This document shows, in pieces, positions 6,133 through 57,838 of a DNA stretch of 64,000 nucleotides (position 1 is its first letter; every line of letters starts with the position of its first letter). The notes beneath the pieces were generated by a model. The model made no database searches. It was not told the DNA's origin and saw nothing but the letters and a program-made list of their open reading frames with translations. The stretch lies in IMG/VR virus record IMGVR_UViG_3300003873_000004, positions 31,269-95,268 of that record. One strand, 5' to 3'. The stretch comes from a virus. The position numbers and the translations under genes were made by a program.

Positions 6133-6134
6133 TT

Positions 6135-33333: not shown

Positions 33334-33336
33334 TTC

Positions 33337-38598: not shown

Positions 38599-38638
38599 TT
38601 ATGGGGTTCTTAGAACCCCACCAGAACATAGGAGAAAT

Positions 38639-39187
38639 ATGAAGTCGTTTAATGAATCGTCGTTGTCCAGAGTATGGCAGCATTTCAAAAACGATGATCG
38701 AACTGTCGTTGTTCTAACTTCGTCAAGAGAAGGCATGCTTGACACTGATGTGATCAAAGGAAACAAATATATCGCCGCCAAATTACAAAATGCTGGATTT
38801 GGGTACTTCTTTGTTGAAGGTCATTTCATCGAAAATAAAGGAGATTCAGACGAAGCGAAGGCGAAAGAAGAATCCATTTTTGCCATTGCCGAAAGGGAGA
38901 AATCAAACAAGTTGATTTCTCTAGCGCATGCTTTAGCAAATAGATACAACCAAGACGCTATCATTGTGAAGGAAGGCAAAGGAGACAGTTCCATTTCATA
39001 CTTTTTGAACAAAGATAACACAAAAACGGCACTGAAAGGTAAATTGAGTCCAGGCAAGATTGGTGACTATTATACACGGCTTCATAACAATAAGAAAGCC
39101 AACACTTTTGTTTTTGAATCTGTAAAGCATACAAAAAGTTGGATAGGAAAGGCCGAAGAGTTCACACGAATGAGCAGCGTCACCTAG
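38639..39187 (+). CDS. SAM lyase (T3 SAMase)-like protein with capsid-targeting-like N-terminus
   Basis: VLTSSR...N...L...EGHFIE...EES...LANRYNQDAII. Confidence 0.6.
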   Translation: MKSFNESSLSRVWQHFKNDDRTVVVLTSSREGMLDTDVIKGNKYIAAKLQNAGFGYFFVEGHFIENKGDSDEAKAKEESIFAIAEREKSNKLISLAHALANRYNQDAIIVKEGKGDSSISYFLNKDNTKTALKGKLSPGKIGDYYTRLHNNKKANTFVFESVKHTKSWIGKAEEFTRMSSVT

Positions 39188-39456
39188 AAGTTTGTGAAAG
39201 CGTAAGAATGTAAACTTGTGGTTTACAAAATTGCGAATTGCCAGCGAATAACTACGCGTAGATGAAGAAACGTAAACTAACACATATTTTGAACAGTAAC
39301 AAACAAAATGTTAGAGTGCGAAACAAAGTGCTTGACAAGATCAAAGAAATAGTTTAGACTTATTGTATTGAAAGGGTGAAAATTGTTCAGGTGAACAGGC
39401 GTGCCCGCTGATGGTGGTTCGATTCCTCAAGTACACTCATTTCAGACGAAGGAAGT

Positions 39457-39772
39457 AGTGACGGTAATCGCAAAGTGTGCGGACTGAACGGAACTTCGGT
39501 AGTGAATGTGTCACAAAAGCAAGGGCTGCTCGATGGCCAAATCGAGCGAATAAAGCACGGTAAAATCCCGTATTGGTCGCAGTTTTGTTGATTCTCCCGA
39601 TACGCTTGGACAACAGTTTATCCCATAGTTGTTCAGCGAACCAGATCGACTGCTTAGGTGCAGTGCAAAAGTCAATCTCAGTCCGCACATCGAGAGGTTG
39701 ATTGGAGTTGAGATGTGCCCTATCCCGTCAGGTTATGGGAATGATGGTTCGATGTGGGGTCAAACTGTCATT
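39457..39772 (+). ncRNA. unidentified structured RNA (~315 nt)
   Basis: Closing helix 39457-65/39764-72; 12-bp helix 39476-87/39678-89; several inner hairpins; promoter at 39332. Confidence 0.65.
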
Positions 39773-39850
39773 AGCGTCTGTAGTTTAATTAGAGGACAAA
39801 ACACTTGCCATGAGGTTAGAGATTTGGGTTCGAATCCCGGCATGACGCTG
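39773..39850 (+). tRNA. degenerate tRNA-like element
   Basis: AGCGTC/GACGCT acceptor, TAGTTTAA D-arm start, GGTTCGAATCC; irregular anticodon arm. Confidence 0.5.
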
Positions 39851-40047
39851 ATTATTAAATGAAAACAACGATTATTAGGAGAATAACTAATGTCACAAAA
39901 AGAATACATCGCATGGTTAGAACAGGAATTGTCTAGGTATATTGTTGGTTCTTCTGATACGATGGAAGAAATCGTAGAGAAAATAGATCATGTTCTAGAG
40001 ACGCGAAACGACTTCTTAGAGAACGAAAACTTTGAAGAGGAGTGGTA

Positions 40048-41133
40048 ATGCCAGCATATTGGATAGATAAGAAAGGAAAATTTACAGAATCGAGAGATAA
40101 TCATATTATTTCTATCATTGCGAACCCTAAAGTGTTTGGTTTCACTCTAGCGCAATTGAAAGAAACTTATGTGAAATACGATGAACATTTTGGGGCTGAA
40201 GGCAAAGCGCGACGAGAAATCATCGATGAAGCTATCAGTCGAGGATGGATTAGAGTTCGATTATATCCTAGAACTCACTGGTCTATCACTATCGCTAAAC
40301 TTGACAAGCGTGTTCGCAATGTAATTACTGAATTTTGTCAGAATTTGATTGCTGGTAAATATCCCGCTGTTCGTAATCTCGACCAATATCAACCCGTGAA
40401 ATTTACTGCTGTGAAATCCAGACAGACTAATCAAGATTATACTGTCAAAGAAATAGCTGATGGCGAGCTATTGGACGGGAAGAAGCTGGTTGAAACCCTG
40501 TTTCTTATTGATGATTATTCGGATTTTCTTGAAGAAAGTTCGTTGTCACGTGTATGGAATCAGACCAGAAAGCATTCTGTTGGGACTATTACAGCATACA
40601 GATATGCTCGTGACTGTGGTACTGGTGAAGTTTATACGAAGAACGAGAATAAATCCCGAAATGTTGTGCTTAGAGCAAAACTTCTCAAACTCGGATATTC
40701 TATTACCAAAATCAAAGGAACATATATCGAAAATTATGGTTCATCAAAGGAAATCGAAGTGTCAGAGGAGTCCTTCTTGGTGGTTGATTTGGACGACGAC
40801 GGCAAGCTACGCACTAATCTAATCAAACTCGGAACAGAGTTCGACCAAGATTCTATCACATTTCAAGAAAATTCAAACACGGGATATTTTCTAATTTCGA
40901 CAAATAAATGTGAAAGTGGATATCCGGGTCATGGAAAGATCGGAGTTATCAAGAAGCTTGGCAAAACGATGTTCGGTAAGAAAGGTGAGTTTTTCTCAAA
41001 AGTGAACGGACGGCCATTCGTGTTTGAAGAAGTTGGCGAACATTTGATCAATTTTTCAGATTTAGAAATTTCCGGAAAGCGTGGTGTTGTAGAATGGTCT
41101 AAGAAGAGTGGACAATCTGCGTGTTCGATTTAG
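40048..41133 (+). CDS. two-domain protein with C-terminal SAM lyase-like domain
   Basis: FLEESSLSRVW...ITAYR...NKSRN..L...GTYIE...EESFLV...LGTEFDQDSI; paralogue of 38639. Confidence 0.65.
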   Translation: MPAYWIDKKGKFTESRDNHIISIIANPKVFGFTLAQLKETYVKYDEHFGAEGKARREIIDEAISRGWIRVRLYPRTHWSITIAKLDKRVRNVITEFCQNLIAGKYPAVRNLDQYQPVKFTAVKSRQTNQDYTVKEIADGELLDGKKLVETLFLIDDYSDFLEESSLSRVWNQTRKHSVGTITAYRYARDCGTGEVYTKNENKSRNVVLRAKLLKLGYSITKIKGTYIENYGSSKEIEVSEESFLVVDLDDDGKLRTNLIKLGTEFDQDSITFQENSNTGYFLISTNKCESGYPGHGKIGVIKKLGKTMFGKKGEFFSKVNGRPFVFEEVGEHLINFSDLEISGKRGVVEWSKKSGQSACSI

Positions 41134-41835
41134 CAAAAGAACCAACAACGAAGGAGAAATGAACATGGCGGATGCATCGGGTGCTCCATCAGAACTATTT
41201 TTAGTTGTAAGCAGTAGAGCGACATTGTTCCCTGGCACTATTGGGATCCACACTTACAAAAATTCACGCATTAAAAATGTCAACTGAATCTAATATTAGA
41301 TATTTCGTCTATTCAACAAAAATGCTGGCAGTCGCAACCAATCATCCTTCAACACTAGAAAATATCGCTTGACAAGAGCGTCAAAATAGTTTAGACTTAT
41401 TGTATTGAAAGGGAAAGAAGCGTTCAAAGAACAAGCTTCAACGGTTAGACAAACTAATCACTGGTGAAAGGCCAGGAAACAAAGTGCTTGACAAGATCAA
41501 AGAAATAGTTTAGACTTATTGTATTGAAAGAAGTTAAGGAGATTATATTATGAAAAAATTATCAACAACAAAAAGAATCAAGTGTGAAAATTGTGGGGCG
41601 TTCATTCGTGAAAATCTGATGCCGAAACATAAGTGTAAAGTTTGGCGCGAAAAAGAGCTGGACAAAATCGTAGAACGCATGGAGAAGAAATGAGTCACGA
41701 TTCATGTAAACTTTGTGGATGGGTGGAACCAGAGAACGGTAAAGCTGTGACACGTCGATGCGATCGAGAAGGTTGTCCACAGAAGAAAGAATACCCATTA
41801 ATGAACTGGCTTAAGAAAGCTTTTGTGGAGAAAAG

Positions 41836-42054
41836 ATGAACGTAAATTTAGAAACAACACCGTGCGTTTTCGCTCATCCAAAATTACATAATTTGTTTTA
41901 CTGTGATCGACACCCGCAGGGGATGACTCAGAACATGGGCGAAGCTAATCGATATGTTGGCGCGCAAGCAAGGATGGAAGGCGTAGCAGATATGATTAAA
42001 AAATTCCCCAAAATTAAACCGGGACAGGTGGTGTTCAATTACATTGTTAGCTGA
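41836..42054 (+). CDS. hypothetical protein
   Basis: GGAG SD; ATGA overlap. Confidence 0.6.
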   Translation: MNVNLETTPCVFAHPKLHNLFYCDRHPQGMTQNMGEANRYVGAQARMEGVADMIKKFPKIKPGQVVFNYIVS

Positions 42055-42078
42055 ACTATCATGAAGCTAAATAATTAA

Positions 42079-42744
42079 ATGCTGACTTTGAATGAATTTC
42101 TGGTAGAACGAGAATACAAAGAATTTTGTGCACTGGACTTCGATGCTTTAGATGAAGGAGTGCTAGATAGACTATCCGGCGCAATGAAAAAGAAAATCGA
42201 ATTTGTCAAAAGGGTTGCTGATAAGACAGGAAACAAATTGTCTGATGTCGTGGCAACTTTCAAAAATAGAAAAGTGTTTTCTTTCTTCACCAAGATTAAA
42301 TGGTCGTTCGACAAGTTGATTCAACTTCTCAAAACTGGTTACAAAGCATACGGCACACTGATCAAAGTTGTATCTGAATATTTGGCAAAAAATCCCGTAG
42401 TGAAATGGACAGACAAGAAGCTGATCGAATTAGACGATTTCTTGAAAACTCATCCTAAGACGCGAAGAATGGCAGGATTTGTGGTGGCTGGATTGCTGGC
42501 GTATGTATGGTTTCATGTAGCATTTTCTGGTGATGTGTCCACAGACTTCGATATGTCACAACTTATAGCTGCTATGTCTGGAAGTTTTTCATTATCCAAC
42601 ATATTCTCTGGAGCGAATGGAATCACCATGATCGGCCTGCTTTTGGCTGGCACTTTAACTGGCGGGTTTCCTTGGCCGTCTAGAGCCAATACACAATTCA
42701 TTACAGCAATTATCGGCACACTAATTCACAAATTTCGACATTAG
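42079..42744 (+). CDS. late membrane-segment protein with capsid-targeting-like N-terminus
   Basis: MLTLNEFLVE; CTAAATA-N5-ATG; hydrophobic C-terminus. Confidence 0.7.
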   Translation: MLTLNEFLVEREYKEFCALDFDALDEGVLDRLSGAMKKKIEFVKRVADKTGNKLSDVVATFKNRKVFSFFTKIKWSFDKLIQLLKTGYKAYGTLIKVVSEYLAKNPVVKWTDKKLIELDDFLKTHPKTRRMAGFVVAGLLAYVWFHVAFSGDVSTDFDMSQLIAAMSGSFSLSNIFSGANGITMIGLLLAGTLTGGFPWPSRANTQFITAIIGTLIHKFRH

Positions 42745-42814
42745 CGCTTGACAACAGCGTCAAAATAGTTTAGACTTATTGTATTGAAAGAGAAAAACAA
42801 AAGGAGATTATATT

Positions 42815-43069
42815 ATGAAAAACAAATTAGACATAGGTGGCCCAAAAGGTAATGCTTATTACATTCTAAGTGTTGCTGAAAGTTTGTCAGAACAGTTGGG
42901 ATATAATACAGACGAAATACTTTACAAGATGGAATCCGGCGGGTATGAAGATTTACTGCGTGAGTTCAATCACTGGTTCGATGATGTTGTGACTCTGGTG
43001 TCATCAGAGAAACTTCCAGTTGATTCGAGTTTGTACACACTAGAAAATGATTCTGTGAGGTATTTGTAA
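42815..43069 (+). CDS. hypothetical protein
   Basis: GP.GNAY.IL...M.SG.YE.LL pattern; promoter cassette. Confidence 0.7.
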   Translation: MKNKLDIGGPKGNAYYILSVAESLSEQLGYNTDEILYKMESGGYEDLLREFNHWFDDVVTLVSSEKLPVDSSLYTLENDSVRYL

Positions 43070-43497
43070 TGTTAGGCAAGGCTATTGCGCTAGCAGCAAA
43101 AATACACGAGGGGCAGAAAGATAAGGGTGGATATGCTTATATTCTTCATCCGCTTCGAGTCATGAACGGACTAAATTCAACAGACAAAGAACTCTGTGCC
43201 ATCGCTGTTCTACACGACACGGTAGAAGATTCGGATTTGACAGAACAAGATTTACGAGAGCAAGGATTTCCTGAGCGGGTTGTTGTTGGTGTTGTTGCTA
43301 TGAGTAGGCGCCCTGGAGAATCATACGAGACATTCATTGAGCGTTGCGCGTGTAATTCTGATGCTCGATTGGTAAAACTTCAAGACCTTCGAGATAATTC
43401 CGACATTACTCGATTGAAAGGCATATCGAAACAAGATTTGGAACGAATGGAAAAATATCACAAGGCGTGGGTTTATTTGTCAGGAGCACAGAAATGA
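43069..43497 (+). CDS. HD-domain small alarmone hydrolase (Mesh1/SpoT-HD-like)
   Basis: H.GQ.DK.G..YI.HP..V...AVLHDTVED...VKL.D..DN. Confidence 0.85.
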   Translation: MLGKAIALAAKIHEGQKDKGGYAYILHPLRVMNGLNSTDKELCAIAVLHDTVEDSDLTEQDLREQGFPERVVVGVVAMSRRPGESYETFIERCACNSDARLVKLQDLRDNSDITRLKGISKQDLERMEKYHKAWVYLSGAQK

Positions 43498-43829: not shown

Positions 43830-44186
43830 ATGTCTAGAACAATTAGAAGAAAAACATACAAGTCTGGTCTATACGAATTCGACGATTATGCTGGCGAAAC
43901 ACGTATAGAATTTCGACTGTTTAGAAATACATTTTACATCAAACCTGGATCAGGAGCACGTGGAAAATATATTGTTCTAACCAAAGAACATGAACGGAAA
44001 CAAAAAGCAAGATTTCATTCAGACTCATACGAAACCATGAGAAATGCCCAGAAGTGGTATCGCCGGATGCTAAATAAAACACTAAGGACAAAACAAAAGC
44101 AATATTTAAGGAATGCTATCAAAAATGAAACATTTGAAAAATACGCTGAACCAAGATTTATCAAAGATGCAGGATGGTATTGGTAA
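43830..44186 (+). CDS. basic hypothetical protein
   Basis: AGGAGG SD; MSRTIRRK...WYRR. Confidence 0.7.
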   Translation: MSRTIRRKTYKSGLYEFDDYAGETRIEFRLFRNTFYIKPGSGARGKYIVLTKEHERKQKARFHSDSYETMRNAQKWYRRMLNKTLRTKQKQYLRNAIKNETFEKYAEPRFIKDAGWYW

Positions 44187-44477
44187 TGCGGTAGGCTCAT
44201 ACACAAATCGTTTTGTTTTGTTTCTCTTAGTAATTTTCACCTTTCTGTATTTTCAGTCGTGCGTTCCAAATACACCAGCGCCCGCATTTAATTACAGTCA
44301 AACACGTGGTGTAGCGCAACCCAGCTCAGGTAACCTCCTCCAGAGCCTTGGAGCAAAATGCGCTGAAACTCATGCCGATAGAGTTCGAGAAGTAGATTCC
44401 GGAGTCCTTCTCGTTAGCGACAGCTTTGATAATCGCGTCGACGTGCCTCTGAGTTTCTTACCTTTTAGGAGCATCAA

Positions 44478-44786
44478 ATGACAGAAGAAACTAAAACAGA
44501 AGCAGCAACTTTTGGGTATATCCGAAAAAATCCTCTAAAGGCCGTTGCTGGGGTTATGACAATTCTTGGAATTTTAGTATCAACTGTCTGGGCCGCCGAT
44601 GCTAGATTCAATCAAACTCCACAAATAACAGAATTAAAAAATTCAATTCAATTTGACCGTAGGCAATCTCTAGAAGATTCCATCATGGTTCTTCAAATGA
44701 AAACTGCAGGCGCTGATCAGAAAGCTATCGACAAAGCTCTACTAGAACGATACAAGAACAGGCTGAACAATCTAAGCAAAAAATAA
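44478..44786 (+). CDS. single-TM coiled-coil protein
   Basis: One hydrophobic helix; SD. Confidence 0.65.
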   Translation: MTEETKTEAATFGYIRKNPLKAVAGVMTILGILVSTVWAADARFNQTPQITELKNSIQFDRRQSLEDSIMVLQMKTAGADQKAIDKALLERYKNRLNNLSKK

Positions 44787-44836
44787 TTCTTGACTTCTCC
44801 TTAAGATTCGCGTAGAATCATTCAAAAGGAGATCAC

Positions 44837-45097
44837 ATGTCAGACAAACAATTCGCAGACATTAAAATAGGCTTGAAAGATGCCGTGCTTGTATTTTCGC
44901 CAGAAAATGATAATAGCTACGGGCTAGCTGTTCACGCGCCTAAAGAAATCGTAGAAGATGAAAATTCTACCATTCCGATCAATGTTGCCGTCGCAGCACA
45001 AATTTATACATACATTTCGAATGAAGAAAACATGAAGAAAATAATTGAATATTTTGAAGAAACTATGGGAAATTCTGAGGAGAAAGAATGGGGCTGA
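44837..45097 (+). CDS. hypothetical protein
   Basis: Promoter and SD. Confidence 0.65.
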   Translation: MSDKQFADIKIGLKDAVLVFSPENDNSYGLAVHAPKEIVEDENSTIPINVAVAAQIYTYISNEENMKKIIEYFEETMGNSEEKEWG

Positions 45098-46115
45098 TAG
45101 ATAATTTACTAAAACCCGGAGCAATTGGGAAAATATCGACATTAGATACGTCGGTAATATTTAACGAAAAAGATACATTTCAAACCACCCTGCCAATAGT
45201 CAACATAGCGTTTTCTGGTGAAATTGATGGCGGTGTAAGCACAGGTCTTACAGTATTGAGTGGAGAATCAAAGACGTTCAAAACTTTGTTGATGTTGTAT
45301 TGTCTAAAGGCATATCAGAACAAATATCCAGAATCCGTTTGCCTGTTTTACGACTGTGAATTTGGAGTGACCCCAGACTATATCAAATCCATCGGTCTTG
45401 ATGGCAGCAGAATTATTCATATTCCGGTTGAGCATGTCGAACAGCTAAAATTCGACCTTGTTGCGAGATTAAAAGAAATCAAAAAAAACGACAAGGTGTT
45501 TATCATGGTCGATTCTCTTGGCAATTTAGCATCAAAGAAAGAGGTGGAAGACGCACAAGATGAAAAGTCCGTCGCGGATATGACAAGGGCTAAGGCTATA
45601 CGTTCGCTTTTGCGTATAATTACTCCACACCTAACAATGAAAGATATTCCGTGTTTCTTAGTAAACCATGTGTATAAAGAGATTGGAATGTTTCCAAAAA
45701 CTATTATTCCGGGTGGCAGTGCCGTTACATATGCCGCAAACCAGATTTTTGTCATTGGAAAAGCAAAAGAAAAATAGGAAAGGAATTGTCTGGGTTCAAA
45801 TTTACAATCAATATACACAAATCGAGAAATGTAATCGAGGGTTCTAAGTTTGCGTTTATCGCAAGTTTCGAAGACGGCATTGACAAATGGACAGGATTGC
45901 TTGATGTGGCTCTAGCTACAGGTCACGTAACCAAGCCCTCTAACGGTTGGTATGTCCGGCCAAACATCGATGACGTAAAGTATCGAGAGAAGAATACGCA
46001 CAGCGCAGAATTCTGGATGCCAATTTTACAGAAAACAGATTTCCCGCAAGCGGTATCCAGAAAATTCAAACTATCAACAAATAATCTAACACAAGAGGAA
46101 GAATCAAATGAGTAG
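45088..46115 (+). CDS. uvsX: UvsX recombinase, frameshifted near 45772
   Basis: GESKTFKT, YDCEFG, DSLGNLASKKE, DMTRAK; one extra A in GAAAAAT joins KAKEK-IGKELSGFKF. Confidence 0.92.
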
Positions 46116-47779: not shown

Positions 47780-47796
47780 TCTTGCTAAATACTGAC

Positions 47797-48603
47797 ATGA
47801 TTTCCTTCTCAGAATATTTAAATGAAGCAATTTTTGACATAAATTCTGCTGTTGATCATATTTTCGACACGTACTATGCTGATTATTTCAAGAAATTGTC
47901 GAAATTGCATGGCGGGGATACAATACCACGAAGGCCATCATCAAGAACTTTCACATCTAAAAGATTGGCAAAATTGTCTAACAACAAAGCAATTACTGTG
48001 GCTAATCTTATTAAGCCCGTAACTATTACGATAGAAGGTCAGAACAATTCATATAATCCAGTATCTTCACAAATTTTGATCAAGATGTCTCAGTTTGCCG
48101 ATTATGTTCAAAGATTTTCAAATGTGTTGGAACAGGCAGACAAAGACAGAAGCGCAGAAGATGTTTTTTCCAATATGATGATGAATCCGAAAGAAGAGCG
48201 TTCGTTTCGAGAAGATTTTCGTGGCGAGAAGATCAAGAATTCTATTGCTCATGAATTGTCCCATTGGCTGAATGACACAAAAAATAACAATAATATAATG
48301 ACAAAATTGATGAACGCGAAGGGTAAAAACGTATCTATAGAGGTTTTACAGGGATTAGATAATGTAGCACTGACTGATTTTGAACGTGATGCGCAAATTC
48401 ATCAGATAGCACAAATGAAACGTAAAATCTCGCAAGCAGTATGGGATAGTTTATCATTTGAAGAAATGCTATCCAGAGATAATTCTTTGTATCGAGCAAT
48501 TTGGATTAGACTATCAAAAAAAGATCAAAAGACATGGAAGAAATTGATACTAAAACGTATGGCACGTGAAAAACTACTAGGCAAAAATATGAGGTTCAAA
48601 TAA
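47797..48603 (+). CDS. late protein with HExxH zincin motif and capsid-targeting-like N-terminus
   Basis: MISFSEYLNEA; AHELSH...E.DA; CTAAATA-N5-ATG. Confidence 0.7.
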   Translation: MISFSEYLNEAIFDINSAVDHIFDTYYADYFKKLSKLHGGDTIPRRPSSRTFTSKRLAKLSNNKAITVANLIKPVTITIEGQNNSYNPVSSQILIKMSQFADYVQRFSNVLEQADKDRSAEDVFSNMMMNPKEERSFREDFRGEKIKNSIAHELSHWLNDTKNNNNIMTKLMNAKGKNVSIEVLQGLDNVALTDFERDAQIHQIAQMKRKISQAVWDSLSFEEMLSRDNSLYRAIWIRLSKKDQKTWKKLILKRMAREKLLGKNMRFK

Positions 48604-48604
48604 T

Positions 48605-49911
48605 ATGTTATCATTTAAGAAATTTATCACTACCAATCATCGTCGTGAAGGCGAAACCGAATTAGACGAAGGTGGAGCTATATGAAATTATATAATAAAA
48701 TGGATCTATAAAAAGTTTTCGGCCATTTGCAGAACGTAAAGGACGTTGATACTTTTCAATTTTCTGATTTAGAGACAATCATATCCAACGCCTTATCGGG
48801 CAAGTTGTTGAAAACAAAGGAAAAAAACGACGGCCAAAATTTATTGATCTCCTGGATTGATGGGGAGTTCCGCGCTGCCCGCAATGGTAGCCATATTAAA
48901 AACTTTGGTAAAAATTCTATGACAGTATCAGCAACCAAAAGTATGTTTGCTGGACGCGGAACTATAGAAACGGCATTTTCTGATGCTGTTGGTGATATAT
49001 CCAAAGCGATTTCTAATCTTACTGCTAAGCAACAGGAAAAGATTTTCATGAACGGCAAGAAATTCATGAGCGTAGAAGTACAACATTCTGCGAATCCTAA
49101 TGTTGTTCACTATGGAAACGATACAATTGTTCTACAAGGAACACTTGAATATGATGAAGCAGGGAAACCTATTTCTCAGTTTAATATAGAAGATGCTAGA
49201 ATTCTGTCTGGTATGTTACAACAAGTTAGAGCCACAGCACAGAATACGTTTGAAGTAAAAGCAATCAAACAATTAGCTTTGAAAAAATTACCAAACTTCG
49301 CACAATTGAAAAAGAAATTTACTTCCGATTTACGAAAGGTAAGATCACGTTATGGATTATCGAATTCCGCGACAATTTCTGAATATAAAGAATCATATTG
49401 GCGAGAACAGATTACTCGAAATCTTACTGGTCTGGAAAAAGATGTTGAAGAATTACTCATTAACAGATGGGCACATTTCATCAAGCGACCGTCAATTGTT
49501 CAGATTGCTAAGATGTCCAAGCTAGGATCAGACATTCGAGCAATGGATAAAAACCATACAAAATTGGCTAAGAATGCTGATCAACCAATTGAAGATATTT
49601 TTCTACAAGTTGGTGCTAGAGTGATGGAAGGGATGACAGAATTTATGTCAGTCAATCCAGAATTTTCATCTAGTGTCATGACTAAGAACTTGAAAGATGC
49701 TATTGCCAAGATCGAAGCATCTGGAAACGAAGCAGCAATTGCTAAACTTCGATCAGAGTTGGCGCGATTAGATAGGATTGGAATTGAGCGTATCGTTCCG
49801 TCGGAAGGGATCACTTTTTTCGTACGAAAGGGCGGCGAAGATATACTTTTGAAACTCACCGGCGCTTTCGCTCCACTGAACCAAATAAATTCCATCTTAT
49901 GGCAGCTCTAA
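48605..49911 (+). CDS. KxDG ligase-like nucleotidyltransferase protein, interrupted by a 38-nt insert
   Basis: MLSFKKF...LDEGGA | FGHL...KEKNDGQN...EGI....LLKLTG.FAP.NQ. Confidence 0.65.
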
Positions 49912-50042
49912 GCCATTTTAGTTTGTTTCCAGTATGTTGGTATCAAAAAGAAATTCAAATTGTTTCTAGACATACTCTAGGGGCTAGAATTGTATTAAAT
50001 AAAGTTCTTGACAAGTACAGATTAAGAGCGTAGCATTGAAAT

Positions 50043-50948
50043 ATGTTAAAACCTGTAAATGAGTCACTACACAACGTCACGCTTCAAGATATTCTTGATC
50101 ATAAGAAACTATCATCAGATCAGATCAATCATGATCTAACCAAGTTGCTAGAGTTTGATGCCACAGAAAATAGGAACAATTTCTATGGCAATCCTACTCT
50201 CTATCACTATCAGCTAGAAAACTTGCTGAAATGCCATCGTGACAAAGGCAAAACTTTGTTTGATGTTTGGAATGATGAAGAACAAAGAGCAAAATTGATC
50301 TCAGACACCAGAAAGCGAAATCGCGGTGGACGGACGGCTGCAGGAAATATATTCGAATGCTTCCGCATCAACACGGGCTCTGTTGTGATGTTCAAATCAA
50401 CAACCGCAAAATATATCTACCAAAAATATGGAGCAAAGAAAGTTCTTGATCCAACGGCTGGTTGGGGAGGTAGGATGCTTGGCGCGTGGGCGTTAGGTAT
50501 TGACTATACTGGCATTGATACAAACATCGGAATGGTTCACTCATATTATGAGATGCTGACCGCGCTGGCAAATTATCCGACAATAATAAATACGTCTTGC
50601 GTGAAAATGATATGGGATTCATGTTTAGATGTTGATTTTTCTAAGATTAAATATGATTTTGTTCTAACTAGCCCACCATATATCAACATGGAAGTCTACG
50701 AACATATGACTAAATGGAACAACGACGAAGCGTTCTATGTCGAGTTTCTATTACCGCTGTGGAATAAATGTGTTGACAACATTGAAGAAGGTGGCGGTAA
50801 AGTTTGTTTCAATATTAGCCCTCAAATGTACAAAGACGCTAAATACTACGGACTAAGAGACTGTGATTTTGTTGAAGATTTGAAACAACAACTCGGACAA
50901 CAAACCGGTAAGAAAAAACAAGATTTAATATATGGATGGAATTGCTGA
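50043..50948 (+). CDS. DNA amino-methyltransferase
   Basis: LDPTAGWGGR and LTSPPY..E.Y. Confidence 0.88.
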   Translation: MLKPVNESLHNVTLQDILDHKKLSSDQINHDLTKLLEFDATENRNNFYGNPTLYHYQLENLLKCHRDKGKTLFDVWNDEEQRAKLISDTRKRNRGGRTAAGNIFECFRINTGSVVMFKSTTAKYIYQKYGAKKVLDPTAGWGGRMLGAWALGIDYTGIDTNIGMVHSYYEMLTALANYPTIINTSCVKMIWDSCLDVDFSKIKYDFVLTSPPYINMEVYEHMTKWNNDEAFYVEFLLPLWNKCVDNIEEGGGKVCFNISPQMYKDAKYYGLRDCDFVEDLKQQLGQQTGKKKQDLIYGWNC

Positions 50949-52301
50949 ATGAGATACGACAAAATAATTGAAATAATCAATGAGGCAAATTCAGCAAAGT
51001 TACGCGTAGAAAAGTTCAAATTATCATCGATGAAGAACATAGGCAAAAAAACGATTATTCTAAGACTGATGAATTTCGTCAAATCTAATCCAGAATACAG
51101 TGACGAAATTCATCTACCAGCTCCAACAGGGAAAGCCGCGGCATACAACAAAGACTCTATGACTGTGATTGCGGTGACAGATAAATCAATTTTAGCCCAT
51201 ATCAAACGCAGCATGAATATTTTTGACATTGCTTCTCAGAAAGGGGATGATGAATATGTTGTATCAAGTACAAACGGCAGCAAAGTGAAGTTTCGTCTGT
51301 CGTCTGGTCGAGGATTTTATTTTGATGGAGAGAAAGAGCAGAGTTCACCAACTACCGCACAGCAAGAAACCGGAACTATCAAGTTCCTAGAACATTTCAT
51401 CTACAATGGTAGGTACCCTTCTAAGAAAGAAGTAAGCGAAATTGTTGGTTTCAACTTTGACGATAAATGGTATAGTAGCTTTGTAAATCAAGCAGACGCT
51501 ATTACAAAATTTATACATTTAAAAAGTTCAATGAGAATTGATCTAGACAGTTCGAGTTCTTCTATAGGCAAGAAAGCATATAGTTTACTAAAACGAAATC
51601 ACGGATTCAAAGAATCGGATGATAATTGGAACCCAGCAGATATCTGGATTGTTGATACAGGCAAAGAAAGCAAAATATTAGCAGAACTTGATGCGGCCCC
51701 ATCCGTGTTAGATTTTAATGTGAAAATGAAAGAGTTTTTCGATGATAAAACTCTTATTGGTGTTTCCCTTAAGAAAATGCTCCATTCCGCTCAAGCAAAA
51801 GTAATTGATATATCCAAAGCCAAACCGTTCGATTTGTCATTCAAAGAATCTATATACAACGTCAGCAATACATATTGGGATATAGAAACAAGTGGATATC
51901 CAGAAAGATTTATGATTAGAGCCAGAGCAAAAGCCAAAACGATTACGAAGAAATCAGATATTAGAATATTCTTCGAAGGCAAACTAAAAAACAGTAGTGA
52001 ATTTCTTGGTGCTATTCCCACTAGATTTATTAAAACATCAGGATCAGATTCGGTAAGTTTTGACATAGACTACGATCATGTTGTATCAATGGCAAACGAA
52101 GTCGAAAAACTTGGATTTATGAAAGTCAAGAATTTGGAAGCTCTGAAATCTTCGGACGAAATGAAATTAACTTATGTCTATGTCATGCTAAGATACGCGC
52201 AAAAAATTTACTCGGCAGGCAAAAACAATTTACAAAATTTGGGTCGTGCTGGATTCAAACTCAATAAATTTTCTTCTGTACATCTAAAGGTTGGCGGGTA
52301 A
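50949..52301 (+). CDS. restriction-endonuclease-like PD-(D/E)XK protein
   Basis: QQE...WNPADIW...GVSLKK. Confidence 0.55.
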   Translation: MRYDKIIEIINEANSAKLRVEKFKLSSMKNIGKKTIILRLMNFVKSNPEYSDEIHLPAPTGKAAAYNKDSMTVIAVTDKSILAHIKRSMNIFDIASQKGDDEYVVSSTNGSKVKFRLSSGRGFYFDGEKEQSSPTTAQQETGTIKFLEHFIYNGRYPSKKEVSEIVGFNFDDKWYSSFVNQADAITKFIHLKSSMRIDLDSSSSSIGKKAYSLLKRNHGFKESDDNWNPADIWIVDTGKESKILAELDAAPSVLDFNVKMKEFFDDKTLIGVSLKKMLHSAQAKVIDISKAKPFDLSFKESIYNVSNTYWDIETSGYPERFMIRARAKAKTITKKSDIRIFFEGKLKNSSEFLGAIPTRFIKTSGSDSVSFDIDYDHVVSMANEVEKLGFMKVKNLEALKSSDEMKLTYVYVMLRYAQKIYSAGKNNLQNLGRAGFKLNKFSSVHLKVGG

Positions 52302-52304
52302 ACC

Positions 52305-53642
52305 ATGAACGAATCTATGCTATCAAACATCATCGATAAAATCGTAACGAAATTCAAAACAACAATTGAAATTTCAAGAGAACTAAAACGATTCAAAAAG
52401 GAATTTGCCAAGAATCCCGGTGCGGAAACTCGAAGAAAATTCGAGAAGAAAGCAGACAAAATTGCTTCAATGTACGGTGATCACAAACGCGAAGTAAAAA
52501 CAATGTTCATGTTGGCACTACAGGAGCAAGAAGAAAAAAAAATCGAATCGTTCACTAATTGGATAGACGAACAAGAACGACTAGATGAACGTCTGATTGT
52601 TTTGAACAATTCTAAGAAATATAATCAGGCGCTTGTACTTTCTGGGGGTGCTGGAAGCGGAAAAGGATTCGCACTCTCAAATTTCATCGATGTGTCAAAT
52701 TATAAAGTTCGTGACGTGGATGAAATCAAACGTCTTTTACAGAAAATATCATCACTTGGTAAAATCAATATAGAACAGTTATGGAAATCAGCAGACAAGA
52801 CTGAAATTTTACCAAATCAAGCGAAAATTGTGTCGAAAGTGTTGGCACAAAACCACTACAAATTAGAGAATCTTATTCTAAAAGAACCAGATCACGTTTT
52901 GACCCTACATATCATTGTTGATATTATTGGTTGGAAGAAGAAATCCATAGATTTGCTCAAACAGTCTATTCCAACAAACTCAGATCATAAACCAAATATT
53001 GTATTTGATATGACTTCGAAATCGAGATCATCAGTCAAAGCGATAGTTCAACAATGTCTAGATATGGGATATGAAGAAAAAAATATTCATCTTGTATGGG
53101 TATTGACCGATTATAAGATCGCCATCGAACAAAATAAAGCAAGAGAACGAGTCGTTCCTGAAGATATTATGTTAATGACACATCGAGGAGCAGCAAACAC
53201 TCTAACAGAACTAATGGCGGGTCAAGTTCCTCGCGGGATTGACGGAGCAATCTGGGTTATTCTAAACAATAGAGAAAATACGATATTCTGGAAGCACGGC
53301 GACGGGAACCTTAGGAACACGCCAGAACTTTATAACGATTCTACTAATCAGATATCAGCAGCAAAGGTCGATCAAGAAAAGTATGATCGAATTTATGGCG
53401 CCGGGGCTTTCGAGAAGAGAAATGCGCGAACAAATGGATCCTTTGAAAAAGAGAAAGCTGTAGTTAAATCGTTTTCCCGTATTCATGTCAAAAAAGCAGG
53501 AAAGCCACTTGGAGTAAATGTGATGCCATTTGCCACACAACTTTTTAATTGGGTGATAGCAAACATTCCAAGATCGGCAGTCGAAGCGCTAAGAACATCT
53601 TTCGGCGTTATTTTAGGTAAACATCATGGTAGTTCAATTTAA
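52305..53642 (+). CDS. P-loop kinase (zeta toxin/AAA_33-like) with N-terminal extension
   Basis: LSGGAGSGKG, DVD, VFDMT, N..RER.VP. Confidence 0.7.
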   Translation: MNESMLSNIIDKIVTKFKTTIEISRELKRFKKEFAKNPGAETRRKFEKKADKIASMYGDHKREVKTMFMLALQEQEEKKIESFTNWIDEQERLDERLIVLNNSKKYNQALVLSGGAGSGKGFALSNFIDVSNYKVRDVDEIKRLLQKISSLGKINIEQLWKSADKTEILPNQAKIVSKVLAQNHYKLENLILKEPDHVLTLHIIVDIIGWKKKSIDLLKQSIPTNSDHKPNIVFDMTSKSRSSVKAIVQQCLDMGYEEKNIHLVWVLTDYKIAIEQNKARERVVPEDIMLMTHRGAANTLTELMAGQVPRGIDGAIWVILNNRENTIFWKHGDGNLRNTPELYNDSTNQISAAKVDQEKYDRIYGAGAFEKRNARTNGSFEKEKAVVKSFSRIHVKKAGKPLGVNVMPFATQLFNWVIANIPRSAVEALRTSFGVILGKHHGSSI

Positions 53643-53692
53643 TGCTTGACAAGATCATCGAAAGAGTCTAGACTTTTGTTATTGAAGGAGAC

Positions 53693-53917
53693 ATGATGAT
53701 TAAATTTGAAGAGTTTAACCCAGACCCATATACAGGTATAAAAATATCGGATGGGAAGAAAACAATAGAATATCTTGCCGTTCAACTATATGACGAAATT
53801 ATATATTATGTTGAACGCAAGAAACCAGAGACAATCGAACAAGCGTGTGAATATATTGAAGAGTTTGAGAAGATGAATCTGGTCGAACGACTTCGTGCGT
53901 TGTGGGAACAGAAATGA
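53693..53917 (+). CDS. hypothetical protein
   Basis: Promoter and SD. Confidence 0.65.
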   Translation: MMIKFEEFNPDPYTGIKISDGKKTIEYLAVQLYDEIIYYVERKKPETIEQACEYIEEFEKMNLVERLRALWEQK

Positions 53918-54180
53918 TTGAATTTAAACCTATTTACGACGATTGGTACGACGACATAGAAATATGGGAAAACGATGTTTGCGTTTCTACTGTTTCTATC
54001 AATGTTGGCAAATATAATGATTTTGTAGAATACCTAAGTCGACAACCACCACCAAAAACAGTCAAAGATGCCGAGCAAGCGATTATTCGATATCGAGAAT
54101 TGTCGGACGAGAAAATTGCTTGTGTGCTCAGAGTGTTTGAAGAACAGAAAAGGCTAAATAAATCAACAGGAGATTTTTAG
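53914..54180 (+). CDS. hypothetical protein, paralogue-like to the previous ORF
   Basis: Both start M.I.F and share P.T..A...I. Confidence 0.6.
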   Translation: MIEFKPIYDDWYDDIEIWENDVCVSTVSINVGKYNDFVEYLSRQPPPKTVKDAEQAIIRYRELSDEKIACVLRVFEEQKRLNKSTGDF

Positions 54181-54230
54181 TGGCGTCGTTTAGAAAGACT
54201 AGCGAAGACTAAATCAACAGGAGATTTTTA

Positions 54231-54557
54231 GTGGCATCTTATAGTACAATCAAAAAGATAATGAATGAAAAGAAATCAGACTATCAGGTTTACTTTTCTT
54301 CGTATTCTGCAGCAATCAAAGAAATTGAAAAATATGGCGAAAAATATGGATATACTTTCGATGATACCTCTGATCCTACTATGATTGGTGATCAGATGGC
54401 AACCAAAGTAGGCATGGGGCCAAAGAGACCCAATCATGGTAGGACTAACAAATTTCATTTCGATCTCTACAAAAACAACAAATTGCAGAAGAAAAAATTA
54501 CATGCTCAGGTGTATGGTGACGAAGGTCGTTTTGAATTGAACCTGTACATTTCGTAA
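54231..54557 (+). CDS. hypothetical late protein
   Basis: SD; YFSSYSAA...LH.QVY....FELN.Y. Confidence 0.7.
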   Translation: MASYSTIKKIMNEKKSDYQVYFSSYSAAIKEIEKYGEKYGYTFDDTSDPTMIGDQMATKVGMGPKRPNHGRTNKFHFDLYKNNKLQKKKLHAQVYGDEGRFELNLYIS

Positions 54558-55000
54558 TGCTGAATTTCAAAGATTTTCTGATAGAGCGTTCTAATTTAGC
54601 CGCAGAGAAATTGGCAGCGTTGAAAAATAAAAAGGTTGCTCAGACACCAATCACGGCAGCACAATTAGATAAGTTAGAAAAACATCTCGACGCACTGTTC
54701 AAACATCTTAAGATCGACATTGAATTTTCGAAACATTTTTTTGATAGACTTCACGACAAGCGGAATGGTAAAACCATTTCTATTGACGAACTTAATGCTC
54801 TGTTCCAGAAAGTACATAAAAAGTTTGGTGTTGTTCTAACACAAGAGCCAGATAAGTTCGAAGCTGTGTTCAAATCAATTAAATCAAAGATAAATATACC
54901 TTTTGTAATCAAACTAAATAAAGGTATGATTGAAATAATTTCGAAAACTATAATGAGAAAGTCAAACTTTGGCACAAGCAACAAGGAATTGAAAGTATGA
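54557..55000 (+). CDS. capsid-targeting-like protein, possible RNase-fold domain
   Basis: MLNFKDFLIE; FSKHFFDR..D.RN...I...EL; KTIMRK. Confidence 0.6.
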   Translation: MLNFKDFLIERSNLAAEKLAALKNKKVAQTPITAAQLDKLEKHLDALFKHLKIDIEFSKHFFDRLHDKRNGKTISIDELNALFQKVHKKFGVVLTQEPDKFEAVFKSIKSKINIPFVIKLNKGMIEIISKTIMRKSNFGTSNKELKV

Positions 55001-55203
55001 AAATCACACCAAAAATCACAATTGCTAAATTTGAAAAGATGGGATATAATGTCGATAAGACAAAACGATACCTTCAAGCCGTAATTGGTGCTAAGATGAG
55101 CAAAGGCGACTCTGTAATCAGTTTCAGTTATGGCCGGATTTCATCGGACAACAAGGTGAGTTACTTTATATCACCGACGATAAAGCAGACGAAAAAGTTT
55201 TAG
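54997..55203 (+). CDS. hypothetical protein
   Basis: ATGA overlap. Confidence 0.55.
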   Translation: MKITPKITIAKFEKMGYNVDKTKRYLQAVIGAKMSKGDSVISFSYGRISSDNKVSYFISPTIKQTKKF

Positions 55204-55295
55204 TGTCTCATTTTAAGGAAATCACAAAGCAACAGAAGGGAAGATTTCCAGCGATCAAGCTGTATAAAACGAAGAGTTCGAAGGACGTAATCTAA

Positions 55296-55556
55296 ATGTC
55301 GCTATCCTCAGACCAGTTTAAAACATATAACAAAATGGTTCGAGACATATCGAAAGTTTACAAAGGCTCAAGATTCAATCATTTTGGCTTGTCTGGTGAT
55401 ACCATGCAAGTCAATGTAACCGTATCTAAGTTCATACCAGACGATAAGAAACGATCAATCACAGATATATTCAAAGAAAACGGCATGAAGAAAATCAAAG
55501 AGATTTATCAACCCGGCAGCGGTTCTGGTATTATTATTCAAGGTGTTGATAAGTAA
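55296..55556 (+). CDS. hypothetical protein
   Basis: Operon position. Confidence 0.55.
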   Translation: MSLSSDQFKTYNKMVRDISKVYKGSRFNHFGLSGDTMQVNVTVSKFIPDDKKRSITDIFKENGMKKIKEIYQPGSGSGIIIQGVDK

Positions 55557-56165
55557 ATGATAGATTATTTTGAATCCTTTTCTGATTGGTATTATAGAAC
55601 AAGCCCTTCAGATTTATCGACAATAGAAGAAGCGTGGTCTGCTGATGCTGTTCCAGAAAAACGATCAAAACCAGTAGAATTATTTCTTGGACGATTACAG
55701 CCGCCACATTTAGGTCATTTGAAAATCATCAAAGCGATGAAAAATCCTATTGTTGTTCTAGTGAAAGGGAAATTATCAAGCGCTGACAAGAAAAGAAATC
55801 CACTAGATACAAAATATCAAACAGTGTTACTACGAAAAATGATTCCCGGCTTGCGTGTCATTGTAGCAACCAACGGATATTTGCCAGAAATAATTTCTTC
55901 CTTGCGCGAAGCAACCAACAACGAAGTAGTAAAAGTTTATGCCGGTGAAGATCGAATCGCGGGATATAAGAAACAGTTAGATTCTATAAATAAAAAACTT
56001 GACAAGAACAAGCAGTTCATGGTAGACTTCATAAAGACGAAGAGATATACGTCAGCAACACAAGTTAGAGATTCTATCAAGGCAGACGACGAAGCAAAAT
56101 TTAAGACTATGATGCCAAAAGAAGTATGGGATGAATGGGACAAATTGAGAGGATTGATCAAATGA
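55557..56165 (+). CDS. HxGH cytidylyltransferase-like nucleotidyltransferase
   Basis: FLGRLQPPHLGH...AGEDR...SATQVR. Confidence 0.85.
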   Translation: MIDYFESFSDWYYRTSPSDLSTIEEAWSADAVPEKRSKPVELFLGRLQPPHLGHLKIIKAMKNPIVVLVKGKLSSADKKRNPLDTKYQTVLLRKMIPGLRVIVATNGYLPEIISSLREATNNEVVKVYAGEDRIAGYKKQLDSINKKLDKNKQFMVDFIKTKRYTSATQVRDSIKADDEAKFKTMMPKEVWDEWDKLRGLIK

Positions 56166-56422
56166 GTTTTGATACAATCAAACGAATCATAAAAGAAAAA
56201 GTAGATGCCTTTGTTGACATTCGTACAATGGATATGGATTCTGAGCAAGGAACAAAACTTCATACTACTCATTTGAAGAAAGCTAAAGCAGACTTGAAGA
56301 AAAATAAAATACTGTTTGGTGGTTCTGAATCCGCATGGGCTATAAAAGTAAATAAAAAGGATGTCGAGCAAGCTGTAAATGTGCTAAAACGCAACAAATT
56401 ACAGACGAAGGTAGATAAATGA
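56162..56422 (+). CDS. hypothetical protein
   Basis: MSFDTIKRIIKE. Confidence 0.6.
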   Translation: MSFDTIKRIIKEKVDAFVDIRTMDMDSEQGTKLHTTHLKKAKADLKKNKILFGGSESAWAIKVNKKDVEQAVNVLKRNKLQTKVDK

Positions 56423-56832
56423 ATCGTTGGCAGAGGGTGATCGCTGAAGATAAACTGGACGTAGAGCAGATCGATCAGAAGAAATTGATTTTCAATCTAA
56501 AACAGATCACAGCAAAACTTGGTTTGTCTTTTCGAAATGTTGTGCCAGAAATTAGACTCACTTTTACTAATGTGGAACTCGTGTTTCGTTTTGGTTCTCC
56601 GAGCATAGTTGATGTTAATGGTTCTACAAAATTATATAATTTCGATGTTATTATTCAAAACAACGGCGATATTGTAGTCAATGCGTCCAACAAAGATATG
56701 AAGCATCTAGTCGATTTGAATCGAGTGGGAAACGTCAAAACACTAAATAATCTGTATGATCGGCGCGGTCTGTTCCAGAAACAGATTGAGTTTGCTATCA
56801 AAACGATCAAAGATAATTTGGAGACAGAATGA
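56419..56832 (+). CDS. hypothetical protein
   Basis: MNRWQRVIAE; ATGA overlap. Confidence 0.6.
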   Translation: MNRWQRVIAEDKLDVEQIDQKKLIFNLKQITAKLGLSFRNVVPEIRLTFTNVELVFRFGSPSIVDVNGSTKLYNFDVIIQNNGDIVVNASNKDMKHLVDLNRVGNVKTLNNLYDRRGLFQKQIEFAIKTIKDNLETE

Positions 56833-57479
56833 AAACATTAAAACAATTTCAGTCGATCAACAGCAAAGACAAAGAAGGCAAATTTCTCGCACAATATGAT
56901 TTTGACACTCAGAAAATGAGTCCAGCAGAAATCAAGAAATATGTCAAGGGTCTGTCGAAAGAACAGAAGAAAATTCTAGCTGATGTAGACAAGGCCGAAC
57001 AAGACAAAGAAGATCGTAAAGCACAGTATGAGTCGGTGAAGGTTGGATCGACAGTCAGTTACACCAGCAAACAGTTATCATCTAAAGGCAAGACAAAGAA
57101 AGGTAAAGTAATCAAAGTGGATGGAGAGAAAATCACCATCGACACTAATTCTGGGTTCTCCAAGACGAAAAGCTATCCTACTGTTTTGAAAGCTGACGAA
57201 TATACAGTATTGAAAGAAAGTATTAAATCGTTCGACGAGTTTGTGAATGAAAGTAAAATATTCGGGAAAGAGATAAAACACGGGAAGATAAAACTGGTTC
57301 GAAACGCTCCGGGCAAACCAATCGATATTTTTGTTTCTGGCGAAAAGGTTGGTCTTGTACGATTCGAAAGTGGTGAAGACTACGAAACATATTGGGTATT
57401 ACTTGATGGGGTGAAGGGCAAACACGAAGAATTTACCTTGGATGGCGTTATAAGATACATCAAAAAGACAACAAGTTGA
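56829..57479 (+). CDS. multi-module protein with internal capsid-targeting-like motif
   Basis: MKTLKQF...LKESIKSFDEFVNE. Confidence 0.65.
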   Translation: MKTLKQFQSINSKDKEGKFLAQYDFDTQKMSPAEIKKYVKGLSKEQKKILADVDKAEQDKEDRKAQYESVKVGSTVSYTSKQLSSKGKTKKGKVIKVDGEKITIDTNSGFSKTKSYPTVLKADEYTVLKESIKSFDEFVNESKIFGKEIKHGKIKLVRNAPGKPIDIFVSGEKVGLVRFESGEDYETYWVLLDGVKGKHEEFTLDGVIRYIKKTTS

Positions 57480-57538
57480 AATATATTGCTTGACAAGAGC
57501 ATCTAAATCATCTAGCATTATCACATAGGAGTTAAACA

Positions 57539-57838
57539 TTGAAAACATATAACGAATTTATTACAGAAGCGGCATCAAAGGCAGGCAAACGTATTCTTGC
57601 TCGCACACTAAAGCAGAAATTGTCTGATGCTTGGACAATTGGCGGTGGTGGCACTCTAGTTGCTATGGGCGATGCTGACGAAGTTTCTATCGAAGATGCG
57701 GTAAAAGTGTTGTCTAAAATCTCTGGAGTTGGTGAGTTCAAAGACGCTAAACTTGCTGGCGGTAAGAAATCCTCATTTGATGGCGGTATTATTTCCGTAA
57801 TTGAAACTGGTGGCAATGTTCGCGTGGAATATGCTTAA
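57539..57838 (+). CDS. internal head protein-like
   Basis: MKTYNEFITE, close to T4 IPII/IPIII MKTYQEFIAE; TTG start with AGGAG. Confidence 0.7.
   Translation: MKTYNEFITEAASKAGKRILARTLKQKLSDAWTIGGGGTLVAMGDADEVSIEDAVKVLSKISGVGEFKDAKLAGGKKSSFDGGIISVIETGGNVRVEYA

Follow-up and report, generated by a model that had tools for sequence, protein, structure and literature searches.

The 95,268-bp IMG/VR virus record IMGVR_UViG_3300003873_000004 comes from an uncultured marine T4-like phage, and at least five of its genes, which encode unrelated proteins, begin with a conserved decapeptide that we consider likely to be the form that the T4 capsid targeting sequence (CTS) takes in this phage lineage. 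By means of this tag, a small and partly enzymatic cargo is probably packed into the capsid. The contig is ~52% complete according to CheckV, and the stretch analyzed here, hereafter the window, comprises 64,000 nucleotides (bases 31269 to 95268 of the contig); positions are those of the window unless the contig or genome is named, and the features under discussion are collected in Table 1. An earlier note on this DNA had proposed that many open reading frames (ORFs) between 38639 and 57838 carry such tags on enzyme-like cargo. All twelve N-termini that it quoted are present where it placed them, and its reading of the tag as a T4-type targeting and cleavage leader held for the strict cases only, in view of their near identity to the T4 CTS, their conservation, the gp21-type protease, the [LI]xE-rich scaffold and the late promoters described below.

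The decapeptide and its genomic setting

The strict motif was defined as M-x-[STN]-[FYL]-x-[EDKQ]-[FY]-[ILVMF]-x-E. It stands at the start of 5 of the 152 genes called on the 95-kb contig, where 0.002 would be expected, and it occurs once inside proteins (30,067 aa; 0.37 expected), with no others in six frames. With a broadened regular expression, 9 matches were found (0.69 expected), and 6 of these stand at N-termini. Four of the five strict cases lie in the window, at 42079 (MLTLNEFLVE), 47797 (MISFSEYLNE), 54557 (MLNFKDFLIE) and 57539 (MKTYNEFITE), and so the claim that many ORFs are tagged stands for these genes, whereas 38639 (MKSFNE) and 56829 (MKTLKQF) fit only the first half of the motif. 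Examined position by position, the strict tags have Phe or Tyr at position 4 in four of five cases, and Phe or Tyr at position 7, Ile or Leu at position 8 and Glu at position 10 in all five. These are the determinant positions of the T4 leader as reported in a review of Black's work (PMC9026906), in which residues 4 and 7 serve targeting and residues 8 and 10 serve processing, with gp21 cleaving behind L/I-x-E. The tag of 57539 is identical at 8 of 10 residues to MKTYQEFIAE, with which both ipII and ipIII begin in the T4 record that we checked. Moreover, the tags of the two genes starting MISFSEY are not identical at synonymous sites, suggesting that selection acts on the peptide. In AlphaFold2 (AF2) models of the 47797 and 54557 proteins, the first ~10 residues are of low confidence (mean predicted local distance difference test [pLDDT] ~60), and this stretch is partly helical in 54557. 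The mature parts of the tagged proteins are basic, with a pI of 9 to 10, like those of the T4 internal proteins.

The contig also encodes the machinery that such a leader would need. Its upstream part holds a T4-type morphogenesis module with sheath, portal, gp21-type protease, scaffold and major capsid protein genes. The gp21-type (Peptidase S77) protease gene matches phrog_207 (E 9e-67), and both it and a cleavable-looking scaffold are thus encoded on the contig that carries the tags. The scaffold-like protein contains 21 [LI]xE sites in 294 aa, that is, 7.1 per 100 aa compared with 1.06 per 100 aa genome-wide, and the protease has 9 such sites of its own. The fifth strictly tagged gene, which encodes a 79-aa protein to which Pfam and PHROGs gave no name, occupies the position of the T4 gp67/68 slot in the head operon. 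A further protein of this operon, 235 aa long, basic and lacking [LI]xE, is encoded outside the window at contig 23039-23746, where its gene separates that of the protease from that of the scaffold, and is referred to here as the DGHHR protein after a motif that it contains; its C terminus ends in a tag-like sequence, ILSFKQYLNIY. It gave no Pfam match and nothing significant in a PDB sequence search, leaving only a ParB-like guess.

The late motif of this phage is (G)CTAAATA. Its form GCTAAATA occurs at 18 sites on the plus strand and 1 on the minus strand, with ~3 sites per strand expected by chance, and lies mostly ahead of structural genes. The motif is often placed exactly 12 nt upstream of the ATG, as it is for the portal and baseplate genes, 42079, 47797 and others (window 2481, 4316, 42067 and 47785, and contig-wide), a spacing that implies leaderless or near-leaderless late mRNAs. 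The earlier note had placed late promoters ahead of several tags. This was borne out for 42079 and 47797, each directly preceded by GCTAAATA; no late promoter was found near 38639, and the T4-type late promoter TATAAATA was rejected as the late promoter here, since it is not enriched (3 on the plus strand versus ~8 expected). The GCTAAATA site at 50839, located within the 3' end of a methyltransferase ORF, is a possible late promoter for 50949 and 52305, and it is uncertain because of the ~3 sites that chance would supply. The site at 54154 is likely the late promoter of the run from 54231 to 57838. No strong terminator was found in this run before the one at 57871, so that 57539 can also be transcribed late from the 54154 site. 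In the region 54154-54238, the late motif, ribosome-binding site and GTG start are duplicated ~55 nt apart, and the first copy opens a 10-codon mini-ORF before 54231.

Predicted cargo and internal motifs

The tagged HExxH protein at 47797 has a tag-like N terminus in every homologue of its alignment (A1; 22 sequences), in which E10 and F13 are almost invariant and H152, E153, H156, D160, E196 and H202 are invariant. The homologous tags include MRLKQYLTEKTF, MKTYKQFLLEHTF and, in the cultured Vibrio phage PVA8, MITFNEHLVE. The AF2 model has a pLDDT of 90.6, with low confidence for the first 10 residues. Its top structural neighbors are mostly zinc metallopeptidases, yet with Z≤5, and Foldseek against the PDB gave no match at E≤0.001; no Pfam match was found either. 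Past the tag, the protein contains no [LI]xE site, compared with 2.0 expected.

In the family of 54557, the tag is retained and the linker that follows is hypervariable (alignment A2); its homologues begin with MKSFSDFLIE, MISFKEYLAE or MIYSWSEW..INE. H60, R64, K130 and R134 are invariant in this alignment. The AF2 model (pLDDT 88; residues 1 to 30 of low confidence) has T4 RegB as its best solved structure (2hx6; Z 6.8, root mean square deviation 3.6, 106 aligned residues), followed by RelE (Z 6.4), and in BFVD it matches a RegB-type "site-specific RNA endonuclease" (E 4e-6). Alignment of A2 with T4 RegB by hhalign was negative, with no sequence-profile match; Foldseek against the PDB gave no significant match, and a PDB sequence search with A2 gave nothing significant. 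On the basis of the modeled fold, the 54557 protein is probably an RNase. Close homologues of 47797 and 54557 occur together on one 14.7-kb contig.

The two other strictly tagged genes of the window differ in kind. The hydrophobic-tailed protein at 42079 carries a strict tag, in agreement with the claim of a membrane-protein-like cargo, and belongs to a family of 350 representative clusters. Many of the 150 homologues listed start M-x-[ST]-[FY]-x-[EQ]-[FY], and one in a related locus (L014) starts MQFSTYLNE. Neither Pfam nor PHROGs gave it a name, and an ESM Atlas search and Pfam on long homologues were uninformative. The small protein at 57539 has an AGGAG ribosome-binding site ahead of its TTG start and an in-frame stop two codons upstream. 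Its homologues retain MKTYxEFINE (alignment A3), only its residues 1 to 25 match phrog_7857, "internal virion protein" (E 0.0027), and its mature part holds no [LI]xE site; tblastn with the 99-aa protein gave no match. Overall, the proposed tagged cargo is upheld for the zincin-like 47797, the RegB/RelE-fold 54557 and the hydrophobic-tailed 42079, and for the P-loop kinase 52305 with a motif that is internal; it is weak or unsupported for the SAM-lyase-like 38639, the ligase-like 48727 and the nucleotidyltransferase-like 55557.

Table 1. Tagged and candidate genes, with their transcription signals. Positions are those of the window except in the last row.
Feature	Position	Strand	Remarks
SAM-lyase-like protein (MKSFNESSLSRVW)	38639..39187	+	PF23780 under its cut-off; tag unsupported
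Late promoter motif GCTAAATA	42067..42074	+	12 nt ahead of 42079 ATG
Tagged protein MLTLNEFLVE, 221 aa	42079..42744	+	Basic; Gly-rich hydrophobic C-terminal half
Late promoter motif GCTAAATA	47785..47792	+	12 nt ahead of 47797 ATG
Tagged HExxH (zincin-like) protein MISFSEYLNE, 268 aa	47797..48603	+	
26-codon ORF MLSFKKFITT...ELDEGGAI-stop	48605..48685	+	Detached tag-bearing N terminus of ligase-like gene
KxDG ligase-like ORF	48727..49911	+	Other frame than 48605
GCTAAATA within 3' end of methyltransferase ORF	50839..50846	+	110 nt upstream of 50949
P-loop (zeta-toxin-like) kinase, 445 aa	52305..53642	+	Pfam Zeta_toxin, phrog_5268
GCTAAATA	54154..54161	+	77 nt upstream of 54231
Basic protein, 108 aa (MASYSTIKKIMNE)	54231..54557	+	GTG start; tag doubtful
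Tagged protein MLNFKDFLIE, 147 aa	54557..55000	+	Flexible linker, then predicted RegB/RelE-type endoribonuclease fold
HxGH cytidylyltransferase-like protein, 202 aa	55557..56165	+	N terminus MIDYFESFSD, not strict tag
Two-module protein, 216 aa	56829..57479	+	N-terminal half-tag MKTLKQF and full internal tag
Sigma-70-type early promoter cassette TTGACA-17-TAGCAT	57490..57518	+	Ahead of 57539; in ~20-copy cassette family
Tagged small protein MKTYNEFITE, 99 aa	57539..57838	+	TTG start; mature pI ~9
Strong intrinsic terminator	57871..57896	+	11-bp stem, 6 G-C pairs, T-run; closes plus-strand block
Tagged protein MISFSEYITE, 79 aa	genome 22178-22417, outside window		Between portal and gp21-type protease genes

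The tag also recurs in related phages. In 26 related viral loci, [FYW][ILVM]xE was found within aa 3 to 14 in 104 of 730 genes, with 12 expected; a few of these matches belong to paralogous homing endonucleases rather than being tags. As many as 13 tagged genes stand close together in one locus with few untagged ones between them, and the tagged arrays of the relatives (MRLKQYLxE and MDLVEKYLGE types) sit inside T4-like structural modules. In four unrelated cargo families, homologues down to ~30% identity retain the tag as the linkers vary. Tagged homologues exist in relatives for several proteins whose own tag is absent or loose here, namely, the DGHHR protein (N-terminally tagged in three related loci), the HD hydrolase at 43069, the 54231 protein and the nucleotidyltransferase domain of 55557.

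Motifs resembling the tag were found at domain junctions within proteins as well. The earlier note had counted the P-loop kinase at 52305 among the tagged proteins; a tag-like motif is indeed present, and it is internal (IESFTNWIDE, aa 80 to 89, nt 52542-52571), directly before the conserved domain, rather than N terminal. By tblastn, homology to other phages begins at aa 79 to 90, at the tag-like motif, and the homologue in the cultured T4-like Citrobacter phage IME-CF2 begins with MKSFKDFVSLDE. In the two-module protein at 56829, to which Pfam and PHROGs gave no name, the full internal tag IKSFDEFVNE spans aa 132 to 141 (nt 57222-57251), with ATT where the Met codon would be. In a homologue (P0063), an upstream domain of the 56829 type (VKVGS...LKES) runs directly into MKTYSEFINE and a cargo of the 57539 type. 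The ligase-like family shows an [LI]-x-E/GG joint (the slash marking the joint) in three phages, ELDE/GGA here, LILE/GGS in LR756500 and IIAE/GGL in Microcystis phage Mel-JY01, and in the last of these it sits between the nucleotidyltransferase and ligase-like domains. Taken together, the 56829/P0063, 52305/IME-CF2 and ligase-like joints suggest that the tag motif may double as a protease joint and a module-exchange point. An extra N-terminal module ahead of an internal tag-like site was found only in 52305, 56829 and 40048.

Proposed route, alternatives and doubtful candidates

From the motif, its enrichment and its setting, we infer docking, cleavage, presence in the virion, ejection and enzymatic activity of the tagged proteins as follows. 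Residues 1 to 7, in which position 4 is aromatic or Leu and position 7 is aromatic, would dock the new protein on the scaffolding core during prohead assembly, and the gp21-type head protease would then cut after [IL]-x-Glu10. The basic mature protein would stay in the DNA-filled head and most likely exit with the DNA at infection. For this half-genome, the predicted cargo comprises the 79-aa head-operon protein, the 57539 protein, which resembles T4 internal proteins, the RegB/RelE-fold 54557, the zincin-like 47797 and the hydrophobic-tailed 42079; in 52305 and 56829, the internal motif would be a protease cut site that frees the downstream module. A broader version, which is conceivable and which we hold to be rather doubtful, is that the CTS acts, in this phage and in a wide range of uncultured T4-like relatives, as a general "address label" before or between modules. 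It would load swappable enzymes directed at RNA and protein (an RNase like RegB/RelE, a zincin-like protease and a P-loop kinase, and in relatives also ligase-like, NMNAT/cytidylyltransferase-like and HD modules), the head protease would free the modules at [LI]-x-E, and the enzymes, injected ahead of all phage gene expression, would shut off host mRNA or mend phage-targeted RNA.

Several observations weigh against the reading of the decapeptide as a CTS with packed cargo. Position 4 of the 42079 tag is Leu rather than aromatic, and this protein has 2 [LI]xE sites. The depletion of [LI]xE in the mature cargo is weak (14 observed and 22.8 expected in the block 47797-57838). The best T4 look-alike, 57539, has an early-type promoter as its only promoter of its own, together with its TTG start; in our reading of the T4 record, early-type promoter sequences lie upstream of ipII and ipIII too. 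The DGHHR protein of the head operon is untagged here though tagged in relatives. The fold assignments are modest (Z 6.8 for 54557 and ≤5 for 47797) and lack sequence-level support.

A different role is also conceivable, in which the tagged proteins help to build the prohead or its core, as T4 gp67 and gp68 do; the tag would bring them into the core, the protease would then destroy or expel them, and they would form no injected toolkit. The 79-aa protein occupies the very slot of these helpers, short [LI]xE leaders stand at the N terminus of every T4 core protein, and ejection is a step that we infer. The larger tagged proteins, however, are folded, basic and almost free of internal [LI]xE (none in 47797 or 57539), so that the protease would leave them intact, in contrast to the scaffold, which has 21 sites; the genes for these proteins are spread among variable genes outside the conserved head operon, and the zincin-like and RegB/RelE-like folds suggest host molecules as targets. 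We therefore judge a helper role unlikely.

Two further explanations would deny the leader its link to the prohead. The shared N terminus could be a by-product of module shuffling or translation-start constraints, an AT-rich start region or a recombination linker that moves with promoter cassettes and sorts nothing, as might be imagined from the AT-rich tag codons, the promoter cassettes repeated throughout the genome and the upstream domain that 56829 and P0063 share, which meets a different cargo in each precisely where the tag stands. This is highly improbable, given that the tags vary at synonymous sites, stand behind differing promoter types or none, conserve the positions that matter in T4 and persist at ~30% identity in distant phages. 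Least probable of all, in our estimate, is that the leader is recognized by some other enzyme or partner, such as a modifying enzyme or a chaperone, and not by the prohead core and protease. Modifying enzymes can make use of shared leaders, but here the tagged genes have no candidate partner gene linked to them, the [IL]-x-E ending fits the specificity of the encoded gp21-type protease, and the scaffold is enriched for the same motif. Targeting to the prohead and cleavage by its protease thus remain our preferred reading.

The wider set of tags that had been proposed fared less well than the strict one. Loose [ILV]-x-E N-termini were rejected as a tag class for their chance-level frequency: with the strict cases removed, they are no commoner in the region (5 of 25) than elsewhere (12 of 85), which leaves the claimed looser tags at 50949, 54231, 55557, 56162 and 56419 without a class to belong to. 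Individually, 50949, 55557, 56162 and 56419 have no statistical support, and 56419 (MNRWQRVIAE) does retain positions 4, 8 and 10; Pfam and PHROGs gave no name to 56162 or 56419. The N terminus of 54231 itself falls outside the strict motif, and residues 15 to 107 of this protein align with the C-terminal half of a tagged 192-aa protein of a related locus (L020) starting MKFETYLNE. The 55557 protein matches phrog_3041 and phrog_395, with Pfam CTP_transf_like under its cut-off. Its own N terminus misfits, and only in a relative does its domain form part of a tagged protein, as the C-terminal part of a 502-aa protein (L004) starting MNFETYLSE. The SAM-lyase-like 38639 aligns from residue 4 with residue 161 of its paralogue 40048, so that MKSFNE is a six-residue lead-in to a domain common to both; it has Phe rather than Leu/Ile at P3 and no late promoter, and its tag is unsupported.

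The tag assigned to the ligase-like protein did not hold either, as the gene is interrupted and the 48605 tag lacks Glu10. A 41-nt AT-rich, frame-breaking gap (48683-48723), containing TATAAAAA, separates EGGA from GHL, and the gene formed by 48605 and 48727 is probably broken. Logan contigs of the source sample contain the identical gap sequence at ~17x depth. A translational bypass of the T4 gene 60 type was considered and rejected, as no take-off/landing pair restores the frame over the 41 nt. The homologue in LR756500 starts MKFLKSYEEFLNENLILE/GGSYGHLNHPF, and that in Mel-JY01 reads ...NIIAE/GGLGGHMNHPF. The 48727 ORF gave no Pfam, PHROG or PDB sequence match, and a single-protein locus search was empty. 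In Mel-JY01 (L035, 2236-4155) the ligase-like module is fused to the HxGH nucleotidyltransferase module, and in LR756500 (L047, 2405-5663) the two lie side by side, which suggests that they may work together.

Further features of the contig were recorded beside the tagged genes. The early promoter ahead of 57539 belongs to a ~59-nt cassette (CTTGACAAGAGCA..TAGACTTATTGTATTGAAAGAG) present in ~20 copies between 4885 and 59903, and a 130-nt element occurs five times (6134-6263, 20783-20912, 24736-24865, 49907-50036 and 59750-59879). These repeats resemble the mobile promoter cassettes (PeSLs) of T4-like phages, and mechanical ORF calling yields spurious small ORFs through them. A GCTAAATA site at 44070 precedes two small membrane-type ORFs (window 44070-44786), 44113 (122 aa, with a possible lipobox) and 44478 (102 aa, with one transmembrane segment), which look like a spanin-like late lysis pair. 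The uvsX gene (window 45088-46115) is present as two ORFs of 229 and 109 aa in different frames, split at the A-run GAAAAATAGG at ~45770; a single added A would restore a continuous ...KAKEKIGKELSGFKF, and the split may stem from an error of sequencing, from a genuine frameshift or from programmed slippage. A 634-aa ORF stands behind a late motif at 33045-35241, where the GC content is 0.43 to 0.49 compared with ~0.38 elsewhere. No tRNA was found in a search of 37000-42000. The gp41 helicase is ~52% identical to those of T4-like cyanophages, and a 5-kb megablast query found nothing in the phage collection. The only sequencing runs listed as containing the sequence are two of the probable source sample, with no RNA run among them, and their contigs repeat the window sequence.

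Significance and comparison with known systems

If the tag works as in T4, the head contents of this phage could be read from sequence alone, giving a predictable list of the proteins that reach the host ahead of gene expression. A mechanism studied almost solely in T-even coliphages would then extend to abundant uncultured marine phages and would offer concrete candidates for early host shut-off or counter-defense. RegB/RelE-fold and zincin-like proteins are not known among T4-type internal proteins, and the variant tags MISFSEYLNE, MRLKQYLTE and MDLVEKYLGE are candidate packaging signals.

Enzymes in phage heads have precedents outside the internal proteins. In T4, Alt is an ADP-ribosyltransferase that resides in the head, loses a short N-terminal propeptide to gp21 and is injected with the DNA (PMC9026906; PMC5512222), a precedent for an enzyme delivered by way of a cut leader. 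The leader of Alt, however, is ~7 residues long and not an internal-protein-type CTS, and we detected no ADP-ribosyltransferase in this phage DNA. Polyvalent proteins and PBECR domains include zincin-like peptidases and BECR/RelE-fold RNases that were predicted to be packed in the head and injected early (Iyer, Burroughs, Anand, de Souza & Aravind 2017, PMC5512222), and the same two kinds of enzyme appear here as candidate head cargo. In that case a single giant polypeptide strings the domains together, mostly along with MuF or portal domains, whereas the proteins described here are mostly encoded by separate genes with T4-type leaders; the tagged ones are single-domain proteins without a multi-effector layout, and the Pfam PBECR and polyvalent-domain models gave no match. 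In the giant phages phiKZ and SPN3US, cleavage by a gp21-related protease falls after Glu within a short motif, and many proteins of the inner head, ejection proteins among them, bear propeptides at their N terminus (PMC5694885). The Glu-specific cleavage of N-terminal leaders by a gp21-related enzyme is shared, but those propeptides mostly exceed 100 residues and have no common decapeptide. As for T4 RegB (PDB 2hx6), it is the best structural neighbor of the 54557 domain, ahead of the RelE-family toxins; unlike 54557, it is an untagged early protein, and it has no detectable sequence similarity to 54557.

The closest comparison is with the CTS-bearing internal proteins of T4 itself, since variable internal proteins that share only the CTS are established in T-even phages (PMC3012670; PMC9026906). 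Both systems have a 10-residue N-terminal leader with aromatic residues at 4 and 7, Ile or Leu at 8 and Glu at 10, and both occur in the same phage superfamily, each alongside a gp21-type protease and a scaffold rich in [LI]xE. In both, the mature proteins are basic, the cargo is unrelated and variable, and 57539 is of internal-protein size. In contrast to T4, tagged genes are more numerous here, at least 5 in a half-genome versus 3 in T4 by a comparable pattern; the predicted cargo is larger and enzyme-like; tag-like motifs are also found inside proteins at domain junctions; and the late promoter motif differs. The packaging principle is thus known from T4, and the cargo families and the tags at internal junctions are new.

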